The position numbers and the translations under genes are program-made. From Minisyncoccota bacterium (GTDB lineage Bacteria; Patescibacteriota; Minisyncoccia; Phycocordibacterales; UBA918), in contig JAWKSR010000001.1 in assembly GCA_041389005.1 (NCBI GenBank), positions 102,465-166,464 of the forward strand: 64,000 nt of DNA. The letters are read 5' to 3'. The notes beneath the pieces were generated by a model. It had not been told where the DNA came from and ran no database searches. It saw only the letters and a list, made by a program, of their open reading frames with translations. Of the stretch, positions 49,690 to 62,518 are shown one piece after another; positions within the stretch are counted from its first letter, which is position 1; every line of letters starts with the position of its first letter.

Positions 49690-50296
49690 ATGACTGAAAA
49701 AAATTCTCAAGCAGCTGAGTCGGACATAGAACCAGTTAACGAAGAGTCATTTACTGACACGGAACTCGTTGAAGAGGAAACGCAGTATCAGGATAAACTC
49801 AAGAAACTGCGTGAAGAGCTCAAAAACAGTGCGACACTGAAAAAGAAGCACCTAGAAGACCTACAACGAGCTAAAGCCCGACTTTCTTAACGCTAAGAAA
49901 CGTTTAGAAAGCGAGAAAGAATCTGGTGAAGGATAATACTATCAACGAACTGATACGTTCTTTACTTCCGCTGTGTGACAGTTTTCATGTGGCTCGCTCC
50001 GATGATGCACTGTAGCGAAAGTACTGACCCAAAGTGGCGCTCTGGCGTAGAGCTATCGAGGCGCAACTTAAAAATGTGCTAAAGACTTACGGAGTAACTG
50101 CGATAGCATCTGAAAATGAAATGTTTGACCCAGAACACCATGAGGCAGTACAAACTGGTATTCCGGTGAAGACAAGGCACAAGATGGCGTAGTGATAACT
50201 GTTGTACAACCAGGCTATCAACGCACTGCAGCAGCTGACACCAATACCGTCATCCGTCCCGCCCGTGTCAGTGTCGGAGAATACACTCAGAAATAA
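49690..50296 (+). pseudogene. grpE: Nucleotide exchange factor GrpE, several frame changes and stops
   Basis: Segments in different frames: acidic N-terminus plus coiled coil (QYQDKLKKLREELK...DLQRAKA/FLNAKKRLESEKE), LLPLCDSFH, LKNVLKTYGVTAIASENEMFDPEHHEAV, GVVITVVQPGYQ...IRPARVSVGEY. Confidence 0.8.
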
Positions 50297-50336
50297 CTTT
50301 ACTTTAAGATTCACTGAATAACTATTATGGCAAAAA

Positions 50337-52210
<1,874 letters not shown>

Positions 52211-52263
52211 AGCGTAGCTATTCGCTCTGCCTGTAGTTTGTGGCATAATGCCAGCTATCAACC

Positions 52264-53326
52264 ATGACTAAGAAAGACTATTACGAAACACTCGGACTGG
52301 CTCGTGGTGCTAGTAAAGATGAGGTTAAAAAAGCCTTTCGTAAACTAGCTGCCAAGTATCACCCCGACAAAAAACTGGCGATGAAGCCAAGTTTGAGAGA
52401 TCAGTGAAGCGTACGCAGTATTGAGCGATGACAAGAAAAAGGCTGAATACGATGCCTATGGTCACGCCTTCTCTGGCAGCGGTGGTCCACAAGGCTGGGG
52501 TGGAGGAAACCCATTTGGCGGTGAAACGGGTGTTGAGTTTGATATCAACGATATCTTTGAAAACTTCGGCGATATGTTCGGTGGTGGTTTTGGCGGCGCG
52601 CGGCAAAAGCGGGGACGTGATATCTCAATTGATATTGAACTCACCTTTAAAGAAGCTGTGTTTGGCGTAGAACGGAAGGTCTTACTGTCTAAAAATAATA
52701 CCTGCAACCAGTGTCAAGGTAGTGGTGCTAAAGCAGGAACTGAACTCACCACTTGTGAGACCTGTAATGGCAACGGAAAAGTGCGCGAGACACGGCAGAG
52801 TATCATGGGTAGTTTTACTACCGTGCGAGCCTGCAGTGCGTGCAATGGCACCGGAAAGGTCCCGAAAGAAAAGTGCGGGCACTGTGCTGGAACAGGAGTA
52901 CGAAAGGAAGAGAGTGAAATCGCCATCAATATCCCAGCGGGAGTTGAAAACGGTGAGGTCATTCGTCTCACCGGGCAAGGTGAGGCTATACCACAGGGAG
53001 TACCAGGTGACTTATACGTGAAGTTGCACGTACACGGTGATCAGGACGTAAAACGCGATGGACTTAATCTTATCCGCACCCTACCGGTAAAGCTTACCGA
53101 TGCGCTTTTAGGTAACACCTATCATGTTGAGACCCTTGATGGGGGAGTGGATATAAAAGTTCCGGCCGGAGTCAAACACGGGGAAACGCTACGTATTAAA
53201 GGTAAGGGAGTGCCATCTGGCAACCGCCGCGGTGATTTCTTGGTCAAGATAACTATTGCCACCCCCACCAAACTCTCCCGCAAAGCGCAGAAGTTGGTTG
53301 AGGAATTAAGGGATGAAGGAGTATAA
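52264..53326 (+). pseudogene. dnaJ: Co-chaperone DnaJ, two frameshifts in the J-domain
   Basis: J-domain [37 protein letters not shown], then a shift, GDEAKFE, a second shift, and [18 protein letters not shown]. The intact remainder (52421-53326) has the G/F region and four CxxCxGxG zinc motifs. Confidence 0.85.
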
Positions 53327-57895: not shown

Positions 57896-59562
57896 ATGAA
57901 ACTACAAGCAATTTGACCTCTTTTTAGTCCTGAGGTTCCTGCACTCATTTACTACTCCCATATTACTGCCGTAGTCATAACGCTACTTTTAAGTGATCTG
58001 TTATCTCAATGCAATAAAACGCTTCCAGCTAAAAAATCTTGCTAGCTATCTCAATTGCATTTTCAGCACTTTCCATTTTAGACATCTTCCTTGGACAAAT
58101 TAATGTGGGAGTAGTGATGTTTTTGTGGTCATTCTGGTTATCTTTGTTCATACTGATTTTCGGTCTAAGTTTCTATTTTCTTTATACCTTATCAAAGGGC
58201 ATGACATTTCGTTTAAATACAAACTTTCCTTTGTCGTCATACTCTTCTTGATTGAGGCATTCAGCCACACAGCTTAACTTAGAATATTTTGATCTAACTT
58301 ACTGAAGCAGGAGAAGGAGTTCTTGATGTTAAACACCGTATTCGGACTTTCCTTCGTTATCTTCTGTGCGTCAGTTCTCTTGGCTTTTATGCAGTTCGAC
58401 ACTAACGGATGAAGATAAGCAACACTCAGCACTACTAGCAACTACCGGCATTGGTTTATTCTTGTTGATCTTCTCTTTTGCAACGTACTTGGCAAGTATT
58501 GTGAGTATTGTCTTTAAGAATGGATCATTAGTATTTATTACTGAACAATATGGGTACTTTGGCATGACCATTTTCATTGGTTTCCTAGCGTACATAATTG
58601 TTCGTTACAAAGCTTCTCAGATCAAACTTATTGCCACTAGGGCAATTGTTGTTGCTTAGTACTGCTCATCGCCTCGCAGTTCCTGTTTGTGCGTAGCGAC
58701 GCTGCCATTGTACTTAGTGGAGTAACCTTAGCGCTTGCGTTCGGTTTTGGCTATTTACTTATTCGTAGTGTGCGGCGAGAGATCGAGCAACGCGAGGAGA
58801 TCGAGAAACTGGCGAAGAAGTTGGGCGCGCAAGCTAACAAGCGACTTAAGAAATTGGACCAACTTTAAATCTGAGTTTGTCTCGACGTTTCACATCAGCT
58901 CCGCAGCCCGCTCACATCTGTACGCGGCTACGCGTCTATGCTCATGGAGGGCTCCTTTGGTAAGCTGACACCTAAAGCTAAAGAAGCCATAGAGCGTATC
59001 AACGAGTCTGCCCGGATTTATGGCGTTGTCAGTAGAGGATTATCTTAATGTATCACGCATCCAGACGGGCAACATGAAGTACGAGAACTCTGACTTTAAT
59101 CTTCGTGATATGGCAGAACAAGTGGCTGACGAGTTGCGTCCGGAGAGGCATTCTCCGGCGGGGCTTATGGTTACTTTAGAACTGACCTGAGACGAAAGGT
59201 GTCGTGCATAAGGACATCGGCAAGACCAAGCAAGGGATACAAAATTTGGTAGACAACTCCATGAAATACATCTCAAAGGGCTCTATTAAAATCTTTGTAC
59301 ATGACAATAAACGCAAGAAACGCATATATGTTGATGTAATCGACACCGGTATTGGCATGAGTGGAGGAGATCGATCTACTCCAGTGTTTGATAAGTTTGA
59401 GCGAGCTGGAGAATGCTAACTATGTAAACGTAACTGGTACTGGACTTGGGCTCTTTGTCGCCCGGGAAATGGCACAAGCCATGGGTGTGACGTCTACGCT
59501 ACCTTCTAAGGGCGAAGGCAAAGGCTCAACGTTTACCTTTCGAGATGCCTGTACAGATGTAA
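57896..59562 (+). pseudogene. Sensor histidine kinase with a multi-TM N-terminal domain, heavily fragmented
   Basis: About 6-7 hydrophobic helices (57.9-58.75 kb). HisKA-like (F)VSTFHISSAARSHL is out of frame with (S)HQLRSPLTSVRGYASMLMEG. HATPase_c motifs NLVDNSMKYISKGS, DTGIGM, GTGLGLFVAREMAQAMG, GKGSTFTF. Confidence 0.65.
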
Positions 59563-59564
59563 AT

Positions 59565-59899
59565 ATGAAGCTTACAGGAATAACTATTGGTAAAAGTAGC
59601 TATCACCAAGGATATCCTTTGAAGGTTATGTAATGTTCTGGAATCAAAAAGCGTGGCTGGCAGTTGGATTCTACATTTATCACTATAGATGATACGGACT
59701 TGAAAGCAATTGCCGATGAATGGATGAGGGTTTGTGGTGGCCACATTTTTGGGAAAATAAGTCTTGATATGATTTTCTTTGTTTACAAAATAAAATATTT
59801 GAGGGTACCAATCAGATCATACCTAAACAAGACGCGATTCAGTATGGATTAAACATCGGAATACCAGAAGGTCAAATGCATTTCAAATTCGAATTATAA
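59565..59899 (+). pseudogene. Possible receiver-domain response regulator remnant
   Basis: Weak evidence only: it follows the kinase, is ~110 codons long, and shows scattered receiver-like strings (ITIDDTDLKAIA, ISLDMI, VPI..YLNK) across frames. Confidence 0.25.
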
Positions 59900-59917: not shown

Positions 59918-60851
59918 ATGGCTAAAAAACGACTACTGACTGGATTGCAATCTTCCGGCACCTTGCATATCGGCAATTACTTTGGGGCACTCAAACCATT
60001 TGTGGAGACGATGAGTACGAAAGTTTTTTGATGGTGGCAGACTACCATTCTTTAACCTCACTAAAAAACCCGGTGGCAGTGCGACAATCTACGATAGACG
60101 CTGTAAAAGACTATATCGCTGGGGGAGTAGACCCAGAGAAAGCGATCATATTTAAGCAATCTGATGTGTCACAACACACTGAGCTTGTCGATATTAAACT
60201 GCCAAGTGACTGTCCTGTTTTTGATGCAAGCACACGCCTACAAGGACAAGGTTGCTAAAGGATTGGAAGCTAATGCTGGTCTGTTTACCTACCCAATGCT
60301 GATGGCGGCAGATATTTTACTCTATGACACCGAAGTTGTGCCGGTAGGGGAGGATCAACGCCAACATGTCGAGTACGCCCGCGAAGCTGCCACTAAGTTT
60401 AACAACGTCTACGGTGAGACATTTACAACGCCACAAGAACGCATAAATGAGAGTACTGGTGTCATTCCCGGCACTGATGGTAAAAAGATGAGTAAGAGTT
60501 ACAAAAATACTATTCCACTGTTTGGTACACCACAAGAGATCGAGAAAGCAGTCATGAGTATCGTGACTGACTCAGACGGCGACCACCCGGAGCATGTCTA
60601 CAACATCCATACTTTAGAACCGAAGCCGAGCTCAAGCCACTATGGGCGAAGAACATAAAGGGCGTTATGGTGATCTGAAGAAACTACTTTGGCAGACATT
60701 GAAGCAACAGTAGCGCTAATGCGTGAGCGCCGCGATAGCCTGAGCGATGATGATGTGCGAGATATCCTAAAGGCTGGAGCAGAGAAGGCTCGAATACACG
60801 CTGAGCAAAAAATGACAGCCGTGCGGAGAAAAAGTAGGCGCTACTTTGTAG
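59918..60851 (+). pseudogene. trpS: Tryptophan--tRNA ligase, fragmented
   Basis: LLTGLQSSGTLHIGNYFGALKPF (HIGH-type), FTYPMLMAADILLYDTEVVPVGEDQRQHVEYAREAA, GKKMSKSYKNTIPLF (KMSKS). Several frame breaks and stops. Confidence 0.8.
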
Positions 60852-60865
60852 TTGACGTTTTATAA

Positions 60866-61053
60866 GGAGAGCGTTAGTCTAGAAGATACCAATGACGCGG
60901 ATGATAACGCTGAGGTTTAGTTTAATAAAACAAGGGTTTATGTATCATTAATGATACATAAACTGAAGTGGGTGGCACCACGTGGCAATCTACGAGATTA
61001 GTAAACGTCCCTGCATTCGTATTATTCACTAATATGCATGCAGGGACGTTTTT
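60866..61053 (+). promoter_or_regulatory. T-box-like riboswitch leader upstream of aspS
   Basis: Short Stem I (agcgtta 60870-76 / taacgct 60905-11). Perfect 14-bp Stem-III-like palindrome (60936-60963). T-box core GGGTGGCACCACG (60970-60982). Terminator aaacgtccctgcat / atgcagggacgttt plus T5 (61003-61053), whose 5' arm (CGTCCC) can alternatively pair with the ACG and GGG of the T-box core. Confidence 0.6.
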
Positions 61054-61160
61054 AAATGAAGAAACGAGCGCCCGCGACTATTCTGAATTTACAAAACCGA
61101 ATTTGCTCCCTTCTTAGAGCAAATTCCTGACGCACCCAGCATAAGATTAGATTAAATATT

Positions 61161-62518
61161 ATGGAAAGAATACTAAGTAAACAAACTCAAAGAACACATA
61201 TAGATAGCGAAGTAATCATTAACGGCTGGGTTGATGTTGCTCTCGACATCAGGGCAAATGGCGTTCTTCGACTTTCGCGACTGTACCGGCACCATCCAAG
61301 GTGTAGTCTTTGGGAAACCTGAGGTGCTTGAGGTAGCTAAGTCTCTACGCCCAGAGTGCATGCCGTTCGTGTCACTGGCAAGTGAATCGGCGACCAGATA
61401 ACATGGTCAACGATAAGATAGAGAACGGCACATCGAGCCTTCTGAAATCACCGGTATTGAAGTCTTAAGCCCTGCTGCTGAACTACCCTTTGACATGGAC
61501 GCTGAGCTCTTCATTGAAGCTAACTTTGACTATCGACCGTTTACCCTCCGTAGAGCGAGAACGGGCAATTTTCAACATTCAGGCGGCTATTACACGGTGT
61601 TACGGTGAAGGCCTACGTAGTGAAGGGTTTACTGAGTTCCAAGCACCCAACTGGTTGGTGGTGACGAGGTGGCGCAGAGGTCTTTAAAGTGAGTACTTCA
61701 AAGACCGCACCGCCACCTGGCAACCAGCCCACAGTTCTATAAACAGATCATGGTGGGTGCTTTTGAACGGGTCTTTTTCTTTTGCCACTGCCTTTCGGGC
61801 TGAGAAGAGTGCCACCACGAGACACCTTAGTGAATACACCTCACTCGATATGGAAATGGGTTTCATCGCCGATCACCTTGATGTGATGAAAGTAGAGACA
61901 GGACTGATGCGTCATATCACTAACCACCTCAAAGAACACCATCAAAAAGAACTTTCTATCCTTGGTGTTGAAGCACCTCTCGTGCCAGCCGGTGATATTT
62001 TTCCGCATATGAAATTGCGTGAGGCACAAGCGCTTATTAAAGAACGCACCGGAGCTGATAAGACCAACGAACCCGACTTAGAACCTGAGGATGAGCGCTG
62101 GTTGTGCCAGTACGCCCATGATGAACTAGGGAGTGACTTCATCTTCATTACTCACTACCCAGTGAGTAAACGCCCGTTCTATACGTATGAAGACGAGGCT
62201 GATCCAGGCTTTACTAAAAGTTTCGACTTGCTCTTCCGGGGCGTGGAAGTAACAACTGGTGGGCAGCGCGTACATGACCCTGAAGTGCTTAAGGCTAAGA
62301 TCACAGAGAAAGGGCTCGATCCTGAAAACTTCAGTTTCTACCTGCAAGCCTTTCAATACGGTATGCCGCCACACGGTGGGTGGGGGATGGGGCTCGAACG
62401 CCTCACCGCGAAGTTCTGTGGAGTACAAAACGTAAAAGAAGCCACCCTCTTTCCACGCGACATCAACCGTATCGACACCCTGCTTTATAAATCGGACGAG
62501 AGCAAAGACAGTGAATAG
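61161..62518 (+). pseudogene. aspS: Aspartate--tRNA ligase, archaeal/type-2 (~430 aa), N-terminal half fragmented
   Basis: The intact C-terminal part (61757-62518) has FRAEKSATTRHLSEYTSLDMEMGFI and GMPPHGGWGMGLERL. The N-terminal OB-fold text (VIINGWVDV..RD..., GTIQGVV) is spread over several frames. Confidence 0.8.

Follow-up and report, generated by a model that had tools for sequence, protein, structure and literature searches.

The gap between trpS and aspS in the window (the whole 64,000-nucleotide stretch of DNA that was analysed) raises the question of whether a member of the Patescibacteria controls an aspartyl-tRNA synthetase (AspRS) gene through a tRNA-sensing T-box leader, and, if so, which tRNA the leader reads and which parts it uses to do so. 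The genes on either side of the gap are as follows.

59918–60865, + strand: trpS, tryptophanyl-tRNA synthetase (TrpRS), with several frameshifts as assembled, read by three-frame translation
61161–62518, + strand: aspS, non-discriminating archaeal-type AspRS, assigned by tblastn with protein P0003 and by NCBIfam

The NCBIfam models NF003483 (aspartate--tRNA(Asn) ligase; 304 bits on the window fragment and 488 bits on P0003, with a cutoff of 353) and TIGR00458 both confirm a non-discriminating archaeal-type AspRS. Of the enzyme, the last 253 aa are intact and 100% identical to an NCBI protein labelled 'Candidatus Paceibacterota'; its closest relatives are without exception aspartate--tRNA(Asn) ligases from Patescibacteria. 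Over the first 200 codons the reading frame shifts repeatedly, by our reading about eight times. In trpS, deletion of one A from GAGAAAAAG gives a typical TrpRS C-terminus (...AVRRKVGATL*), and the true trpS stop is probably TAG 60849–51. The gap, given as 310 nt in the earlier note, is 295 nt as assembled and 309 nt if this TAG is the stop. In relatives, too, trpS lies directly upstream of aspS. Two further genes of the window, dnaK and a histidine kinase gene, are frameshifted likewise, and amino-acid conservation resumes past every frameshift. The frameshifts in trpS and aspS are probably indel errors of the assembly and not gene decay, and single-base features of the leader therefore have to be read with caution. 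In particular, a G·A mismatch in Stem I and a missing A in the sequence GAAGU-GGG may be sequence errors.

At gathering thresholds, an Rfam search of the whole 64-kb window returns a tRNA-Ala only, with no T-box call. A permissive scan of the 551 nt at 60700–61250 matches the T-box family RF00230 (23.3 bits, E=0.0037). The scan that the earlier note had proposed thus gives a match, but 23 bits stand against a gathering score of 93, and by Rfam's own criterion the leader is not a called T-box. In the RF00230 alignment the posterior probability is high across the core, Stem III and the 3′ strand; its Stem I portion is forced onto the 3′ end of trpS, with deletions at 62 of the 67 distal Stem I positions. 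We rest the T-box identity on conservation in relatives, not on the RF00230 score.

The leader occupies 60887–61053, 5′ of aspS, and comprises a K-turn, a 4-bp hairpin with GAU and a following A in its loop, Stem III, the T-box core GGGUGGCACCACG with UGGC in its bulge, and a competing terminator. Its parts and immediate surroundings are listed below.

60852–60880, + strand: possible sigma-70-type promoter, with −35 TTGACG at 60852–57, a 17-nt spacer and a weak −10 TAGTCT at 60875–80
60888–60916, + strand: ultrashort Stem I, 29 nt, covariance-model (R1) positions 1–30
A60888-C-C60890 with G60914-G-U60916, + strand: C-stem of Stem I, the base of the K-turn
60891–93 and 60894–95 with 60912–13, + strand: K-turn of Stem I, AAU bulge and tandem G·A
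G60897-C-G60899 with C60908-G-C60910, + strand: hairpin of Stem I, with G60900·A60907 mismatch and AUGAUA loop
60903–60905, + strand: predicted specifier GAU (Asp codon) in the apical loop, followed by the conserved 3′ purine A60906
60917–60934, + strand: A/U-rich linker, 18 nt, lacking a Stem II S-turn and a IIA/B pseudoknot
60935–60964, + strand: Stem III, 12–13 bp with UUAA loop, flanked by 5′ AAGGG and 3′ CUGAAGU
60970–60983, + strand: T-box core, with A1 5′ strand GGG 60970–72 and A2 5′ strand ACGU 60980–83
60973–79, + strand: T-box bulge UGGCACC (7 nt), with UGGC 60973–76 predicted to pair with the tRNA 3′ GCCA
60984–61004, + strand: distal extension of helix A2, small hairpin AAUCU-ACG-AGAUU in a constrained fold
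61005–61011, + strand: shared strand ACGUCCC, pairing with 60980–83 and 60970–72 in the antiterminator and with 61043–49 in the terminator
61003–61053, + strand: intrinsic terminator, hairpin 61003–51 (14 outer and 7 inner pairs) and U5 61049–53
61054–61131, + strand: second conserved element, AAAUGAAGAAACGAGCGCCCGCGACUAUU..., then a hairpin AAUUUGC-loop-GCAAAUU and CCUGAC

We collected 80 GTDB species-representative loci through an AspRS alignment and 80 metagenome loci through protein P0003. A plain search for GGTGGNACC finds the core, nearly always as GGGTGGCACCGCG, 100–190 nt upstream of aspS at many Patescibacteria loci. A covariance model, R1, was trained on nine Stem II-less relatives with the window left out, and its structure annotation comprises Stem I, A1 and A2 only. 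R1 matches the window at 60887–61013 over model positions 1–113 of 113 (53.7 bits, E about 6e-13), and the second match in the 64 kb is 12-nt noise (5.5 bits), leaving the leader as the only real match. The 13-mer core on its own has no statistical significance, since a window is expected to contain 0.24 occurrences with at most one mismatch by chance, and such a match turned up in 22 of 100 shuffles. The element as a whole is far beyond chance; the fold of the 209-nt leader has z = −6.7 relative to shuffles.

R1 also matches 12 of the 80 GTDB and 27 of the 80 metagenome aspS loci (about 39), all from Patescibacteria/Paceibacteria, with scores of 25–61 bits for members outside the training set. 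The matched leaders lie directly 5′ of a non-discriminating aspS or of a short operon with aspS as its last gene; one of them (L126) precedes an S51 PepE-like peptidase of the Asp-X dipeptidase family, which is followed by aspS. The proposal of a T-box leader with a terminator/antiterminator switch before an archaeal-type AspRS is thereby borne out: the core and the switch recur upstream of aspS at about 39 loci, with compensatory changes, and the enzyme assignment is that of NF003483. None of the 11 Patescibacteria loci with a leader that were scanned reaches the RF00230 gathering score, and the best scores among these leaders (34–50 bits) belong to the Stem II-containing ones. Canonical T-boxes of Chloroflexota orthologues (L076 and L079) score 117 and 115 bits with RF00230, L076 having a GAC specifier and a UGGC bulge, and are matched by R1 in the core only, with 12–13 bits. 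In many other relatives trpS abuts aspS with no leader between them, and the T-box is thus an optional insert in the trpS–aspS pair or the head of an independent aspS unit. In relatives, such independent units have a clear promoter of the form TTGAC(A/G/T)-17-TAnnnT located 5–13 nt before the K-turn. The corresponding site of the window, 60852–60880, did not pass the consensus scan and is at most a weak candidate promoter; read-through from trpS is equally possible.

The 32 distinct leaders were sorted into three architecture classes. The first (14 of 32) has a Stem II with S-turn strands GAAGAAC and AGUAGAAC, in most cases together with a IIA/B-type pseudoknot (GGGnGCGCCCG...AGCGC..UCG). The second (11 of 32), to which the window and L098 belong, has an unstructured linker and Stem III only. 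The third, 'minimal' class (7 of 32) has a 25–28-nt purine-rich linker and no Stem III, the whole sensor measuring about 100 nt. Consistent with its assignment, the window linker (60917–34) contains neither GAAGAAC/AGUAGAAC nor the GCGCCCG...AGCGC motif, and the same holds for L098, which is the closest intact relative of the window leader and is homologous to it over the full length. The element at 61054–61131, beyond the terminator, is common to the window, L098, L087 and L007, with its hairpin pairing kept by compensatory changes; this element has no Rfam match. A leader peptide (MKKRAPATI...) considered for the same segment was rejected, because neither its start codon nor its stops are kept across the loci (L007 has no ATG), whereas the hairpin covaries.

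Every leader begins with CC-NNN-GA-N-(4–5 bp)-loop-(4–5 bp)-N-GA-GG, where the 6–9-nt loop contains N-U-G-A-C-A, and the window conforms to this pattern with ACC-AAU-GA-C-GCGG-AUGAUA-ACGC-U-GA-GGU. In the alignment of 20 sequences of the same length, 98.3% of the Stem I cells are paired and compensatory changes affect three of the four pairs of the hairpin (for example GCAG/CUGC, GUGG/CCAC and CCAG/CUGG); the covariation score is reached by 0 of 500 shuffles, and slid controls collapse. Across these 20 sequences CC/GG and both GA dinucleotides are invariant, and the third C-stem pair is A-U, G-U or G-C. At its base, Stem I has a GA motif that, judged by sequence, is a textbook K-turn, with a C-stem, a 3-nt bulge and tandem G·A. 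A canonical long Stem I, which combines a specifier internal loop and an AG bulge with interdigitated distal T-loops stacking on the tRNA elbow, is absent: the window has 29 nt with a 6-nt apical loop, and all relatives from the Candidate Phyla Radiation (CPR) likewise have no long Stem I. The earlier note was thus right that Stem I is too short for the distal platform, but its 42-nt Stem I (60870–60911) was mis-drawn, the conserved stem being 60888–60916. Specifically, the pairing AGCGTT/AACGCT (60870–75 with 60906–11) is conserved neither in L098 nor in other relatives and finds support in neither the MFE fold nor the family alignment; its 5′ arm lies within the promoter-like spacer, and its 3′ arm is the 3′ strand of the conserved Stem I.

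The triplet in the loop of the hairpin is GAC in 31 of the 32 distinct leaders; the window alone has GAU. Since its register matches the UGACA of the family, the specifier of the window is assigned to GAU 60903–05 with A60906. The same register places it at the second GAU and not at 60900–02, where the earlier note had put it, and also rules out AAC 60906–08, whose three bases are the conserved purine A06, A07 of the mismatch and C08, which is base-paired in the hairpin. An Asp codon in the loop, GAC throughout and the synonymous GAU in the window, suggests that the leader most likely senses tRNA-Asp and not tRNA-Asn; the Asp-X dipeptidase family of the peptidase behind the L126 leader points the same way. 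The GAU of the window departs from the 'C-rule', and no other leader has it. The loop of L043 carries AAC where others carry GAC, which is the lone hint of Asn sensing. Immediately 5′ of the specifier, all 18 Stem II-less leaders have a U, as do 10 of the 14 with a Stem II (Fisher p = 0.028, phylogeny not corrected for); we speculate that this U would permit a fourth pair, with A37 of the tRNA, hinting at compensation.

Bacterial tRNA-Asp typically has G73 and a GUC anticodon, and tRNA-Asn also carries G73. The only tRNA gene of the window is tRNA-Ala, and the ARAGORN finds in the 160 relative loci comprise tRNA-Tyr and one tmRNA, with no tRNA-Asp among them. On the leader side, the earlier reading of the bulge as pointing to a tRNA with G73 holds: the bulge is UGGC in 29 of the 32 distinct leaders and UGGU in two, the remaining row being misregistered. 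In the window, GGGTGGCACCACG was found at 60970–60982, exactly where the earlier note had located the core, with UGGC at 60973–60976, and uGGGUGGCACCaCG at 60969–82 fits the conserved 14-nt T-box sequence AGGGUGGNACCGCG, with a 7-nt bulge between A1 and A2.

The strand ACGUCCC (61005–11) has two alternative sets of partners, namely ACGU 60980–83 plus GGG 60970–72, or GGGACGU in the 3′ arm of the terminator. This is the competition that had been proposed between the 5′ arm of the terminator and the ACG and GGG around the bulge. The 14-bp terminator with U5 at 61003–61053 was likewise correctly described, now with 14 outer and 7 inner pairs resolved and the U-tract at 61049–53. Calculated over 60930–61056, the terminator conformer has −53.4 kcal/mol and the antiterminator conformer −33.2 kcal/mol; a terminator about 20 kcal/mol more stable is as expected of a switch that needs the tRNA. 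A homologous terminator with a U-rich tail is present in nearly all leaders examined. In the window, terminator and U5 sit 110 nt upstream of the aspS start codon and so do not sequester the ribosome-binding site.

Both antiterminator helices vary in the family in ways that keep their pairing. The outer pair of A1 is mostly G-C, with A-U in four leaders and G·U in one. The first pair of A2 is G-C, A-U (window, L101, L139) or G·U, and its fourth pair occurs in four Watson-Crick forms (A-U, U-A, G-C and C-G). In particular, three positions change together, with A60980/U61008/A61046 in the window and L101 and G/C/G in others. A shared nucleotide that covaries with both of its partners provides, by comparison of sequences, direct evidence for two alternative structures; covariation extends to Stem I, both antiterminator helices and the terminator. 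Extensions of A2 homologous to that of the window (GCAAUC...GAUUGC) occur in L098, L101, L087 and L157.

Upstream of the core, the Stem III-like hairpin, earlier described as a perfect 14-bp one, is indeed a 28-nt perfect palindrome (60936–63), but it folds as 12–13 bp with a UUAA loop. Its context, ...AAGG[G]-hairpin-(CU)GAAGUA, is common to L102, L011, L098 and L106, and its flanks in the window fit the published 5′-RRRNG-Stem III-AA motif (PMC7583486). The A before GGGUGG is absent from the window, which reads GAAGU-GGG.

Taken together, homology, conserved architecture, covariation in each helix, the Asp codon and gene context, all shown here, make it likely that the element between trpS and aspS is a functional, Asp-specific, transcription-attenuating T-box of a Paceibacteria lineage. 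We infer tRNA binding, read-through and the source of affinity without Stem II, and propose the following course of events. The leader RNA would begin at or just before the K-turn at 60888. The hairpin would then show U-GAU-A in its 4-bp-closed loop to the GUC anticodon of tRNA-Asp, and the 3′ GCCA of the uncharged tRNA would pair with UGGC 60973–76 in the T-box bulge. This pairing would steady the antiterminator, formed by A1 (60970–72/61009–11) and A2 (60980–83/61005–08), with Stem III (60935–64) acting as a buttress, and RNA polymerase would read into aspS. With charged tRNA-Asp, the far more stable terminator (61003–51 plus U5) would be expected to form and transcription to stop at about 61053. 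As the leader has no elbow platform and no Stem II or IIA/B, capture of the tRNA must rest on anticodon–specifier pairing, K-turn geometry and the discriminator domain, to which a fourth pair, U-A37, may add.

The evidence bears unequally on the other readings of this locus. A chance resemblance of the intergenic region to the T-box consensus might be suspected from the 23 bits of RF00230 relative to a gathering score of 93 and from the 0.24 near-matches to the 13-mer expected per window, but the R1 match (E about 6e-13), the full-length homology with L098 and the roughly 39 covarying orthologous leaders refute it, leaving a practically negligible probability. Another reading is a relic, in which trpS, leader and aspS are undergoing pseudogenisation, the T-box is decaying and non-functional, and the loss of Stem II, the mismatch and GAU are erosion. 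Such decay would account for the multiple frameshifts in trpS and in the N-terminal half of aspS, as well as for G60900·A60907, GAU in place of GAC and the A missing before GGGUGG. However, dnaK and the histidine kinase gene share the frameshifts, and conservation resumes each time, as is typical of indel errors; aspS belongs to the core genes of translation; the design without Stem II recurs in 11 distinct leaders and in the seven 'minimal' ones with covariation kept, and the aspS genes beside them appear full-length by their tblastn matches; and where the window departs from the family in A2 and the terminator, it does so with compensatory changes. We regard decay as improbable.

The remaining two readings accept the homology and differ in what is sensed or in what assists the sensing. 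Because the AspRS is non-discriminating, the leader could respond to tRNA-Asn, or to both tRNA-Asp and tRNA-Asn. Membership of the enzyme in the Asp-tRNA(Asn) ligase family, the AAC in the loop position of L043 and the G73 that tRNA-Asn carries as well all leave room for this. The AAC at 60906–08 of the window, which the earlier note had raised in asking whether Asp or Asn is sensed, is partly in the hairpin stem and lies outside the loop triplet, for which 31 of 32 leaders have GAC and the window GAU, both Asp codons; a GUU anticodon on GAU would have two wobble or mismatched positions. Asn sensing is therefore very unlikely, and the question is answered, very probably, in favour of Asp. It is also conceivable, though unlikely, that the leader is a real T-box homologue that needs a partner to provide the affinity it lacks, either an L7Ae/YbxF-like K-turn protein or the element at 61054–61131, or that its control is partly post-transcriptional. 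The K-turn consensus is perfect in almost every member in spite of the loss of Stem II, a review (PMC7583486) notes that T-boxes may be helped by K-turn proteins, and a second conserved structured element follows the terminator at four loci. Against a partner, we identified no protein candidate, the second element accompanies only four of about 39 leaders, and a conserved terminator with its U-tract lies 110 nt from the start codon, with no sequestering of a ribosome-binding site.

On our preferred reading, an Asp-specific transcriptional T-box, the window places T-box regulation in the CPR, in leaders that the Rfam threshold misses; no family of Rfam 15 takes them above threshold, and in the open-access literature covered by our search we found no paper tying T-boxes to CPR, Patescibacteria, Parcubacteria or Saccharibacteria. 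A T-box in the CPR fits an origin of T-boxes in a Firmicutes-Actinobacteria-Chloroflexi (Terrabacteria) ancestor, near which the CPR has sometimes been placed. The leaders further break the pairing by which a long Stem I is transcriptional and a short Stem I is translational and Stem II-dependent. Within one gene family they form a natural series, from Stem II, IIA/B and Stem III, through Stem III only, to neither, which makes the minimal needs of a T-box for binding and reading tRNA directly testable. A tRNA-sensing switch of about 100–125 nt would be a compact engineering part, and would join the very few native regulatory elements identified in Patescibacteria, where tools for controlled expression are sought.

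Comparison with known systems shows where the leader is new. A canonical RF00230 T-box, such as those of the Chloroflexota aspS genes L076 and L079, shares with the window the UGGC core, A1 and A2 competing with a terminator plus U-tract, a purine-flanked Stem III, the Stem I K-turn, GAC or GAU followed by a purine, and the same gene family. Unlike it, the window has no specifier internal loop, AG bulge or distal platform, displays the specifier in an apical loop, has a Stem I of 29 nt compared with about 90, and lacks the Stem II and IIA/B that most non-glycine T-boxes possess.

In the literature, a short Stem I belongs to actinobacterial translational ileS T-boxes, where Stem II together with IIA/B makes up for the truncation and is indispensable, and T-boxes with a truncated Stem I show negligible tRNA binding without Stem II; Stem II loss is described for glycine T-boxes only, with the long Stem I kept (PMC7583486, PMC11297988). 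The short-Stem-I model of TBDB has Actinobacteria as its only source (PMC7778990 and a preprint). The actinobacterial ileS T-boxes (M. tuberculosis, N. farcinica; TBDB 'class II') resemble the Paceibacteria leaders in their truncated Stem I without the elbow-binding module and, for 14 of the relatives, in an S-turn Stem II, in most cases with IIA/B. In N. farcinica the third specifier base and the next A are C18 and A19 (PMC7583486), and these bases stand at positions 18 and 19 of the CPR Stem I too. As the length of Stem I equals that of N. farcinica, the Paceibacteria leaders can be described as an actinobacterial-type decoding hairpin joined to a terminator. They differ in belonging to the Patescibacteria and in having a terminator, an Asp codon and aspS in place of an SD sequestrator, an Ile codon and ileS, and the window subclass has in addition lost the Stem II and IIA/B that are reported to be essential there (PMC7583486, PMC11297988).

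The glyQS glycine T-boxes are like the window in being transcriptional, in lacking Stem II and IIA/B and in linking Stem I to Stem III by a linker. Unlike the window, with its GAU and no platform, they have a long Stem I with an elbow platform and strong GGC-GCC pairing. By its sequence, the window subclass has neither known affinity module, the elbow platform or the Stem II S-turn. It may be, and we put this forward tentatively, at somewhat less than even confidence, that Paceibacteria possess a natural minimal transcriptional T-box that recognises tRNA-Asp and reads its charging without either module, through a contact not yet described. In such a T-box a 4-bp hairpin anchored by the K-turn would display the codon in its apical loop, and an unstructured linker would connect it to the discriminator. 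The compensating contact would have to come from candidates such as the fourth U-A37 pair, minor-groove contacts of the purine linker or a K-turn protein. The Paceibacteria architecture, an ultrashort Stem I like that of Actinobacteria combined with a transcription terminator, is new as a combination, though not a new principle.

In many Paceibacteria, aspS lies directly 3′ of trpS. The spacing between the two genes is 5–25 nt and devoid of a leader in some relatives (aspS loci L001, L004, L008, L013 and L023), while a T-box is inserted between them in the window and in L098, L081–84, L087, L106, L107 and L148. This distribution indicates that the T-box has been gained or lost repeatedly within the conserved trpS–aspS pair.

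A second conserved element is present between the T-box terminator and aspS:
window 61054–61131, second conserved element
L098:1090–1175, L087:~570–650 and L007:~2395–2480, its counterparts in relatives
The 5′ part of this element reads AAAUGAGnAAAnGAGCG-nnn-GCGACuAUU, and the 3′ part forms an extended hairpin, (G/A)UCCG-AAUyUGC...GCArAUU-CC-UGGAC, in which compensatory changes among the window, L098, L087 and L007 preserve pairing. Frames, starts and stops of a small-ORF reading of the element are all unconserved, and Rfam contains no match for it.

Several essential genes of the window carry many frameshifts:
~49900–52400, dnaK
58700–59630, histidine kinase gene
59918–60865, trpS
61161–61760, 5′ half of aspS
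In all four genes, amino-acid conservation picks up again past each frameshift, and at least one frameshift coincides with a homopolymer run (GAGAAAAAG in trpS). In the remainder of the window, ORFs are long and intact. The frameshifted genes look like indel-rich assembly patches, not pseudogenes, and single-base details within 56–62 kb of the window are not to be trusted.

Two further leader features occur among the relatives:
L003, L109, L110, L111, L112 and L116, 'minimal' leaders (example L110:1295–1395)
L107 ~650–670, L006, L011, L085 and L105, examples of a repeat 3′ of the U-tract
The minimal leaders lack both Stem II and the Stem III hairpin, so that the distance from the K-turn to the end of the antiterminator is ~100 nt. 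Their linker from Stem I to the core is just 25–28 nt long and purine-rich, with the 3′ end ...AAUGAGAC(C/A)AAAGUA, and three of them (L003, L110 and L116) have an extra small hairpin and U-run 3′ of the main terminator. In the leaders with a repeat, the 8–10 nt directly 3′ of the U-tract duplicate the 5′ arm of the terminator (e.g. GUUUCUACAAA) and are thus complementary to its 3′ arm, which suggests a possible third alternative pairing near the aspS start in these relatives. The repeat is absent from the window.

Variation also affects the positions predicted to contact tRNA:
L043:1486–1563, family member scoring 25 bits with R1, the covariance model built from nine Stem II-less relatives
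L117:1354 and L145:1246, Stem II-containing leaders with a UGGU bulge
The Stem I loop of L043 is AUUAACAAC, versus UCUGACAAC in relatives, placing an Asn codon at the specifier position; the bulge is UGGC, and the K-turn is not obvious. The L043 specifier may have switched to tRNA-Asn. In L117 and L145, UGGU replaces UGGC and the specifier is still GAC; with G73 as the discriminator base, UGGU would form a U·G wobble. Alternatively, the discriminator base may not be G73 in these two genomes.

The T-box does not always directly precede aspS. An acidic ORF of ~80–100 aa separates the two in L098, L104 and L148, and in L043 a 233-aa ORF with no assigned function precedes the non-discriminating aspS. 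Two GAC T-boxes head longer operons:
L015:832–978, T-box, followed by a 237-aa membrane or secreted protein, a 296-aa ORF and aspS
L126:436–543, T-box, followed by an S51 peptidase, a 79-aa ORF and aspS
The S51 peptidase of L126 weakly matches PepE/cyanophycinase, a family that releases Asp-dipeptides.
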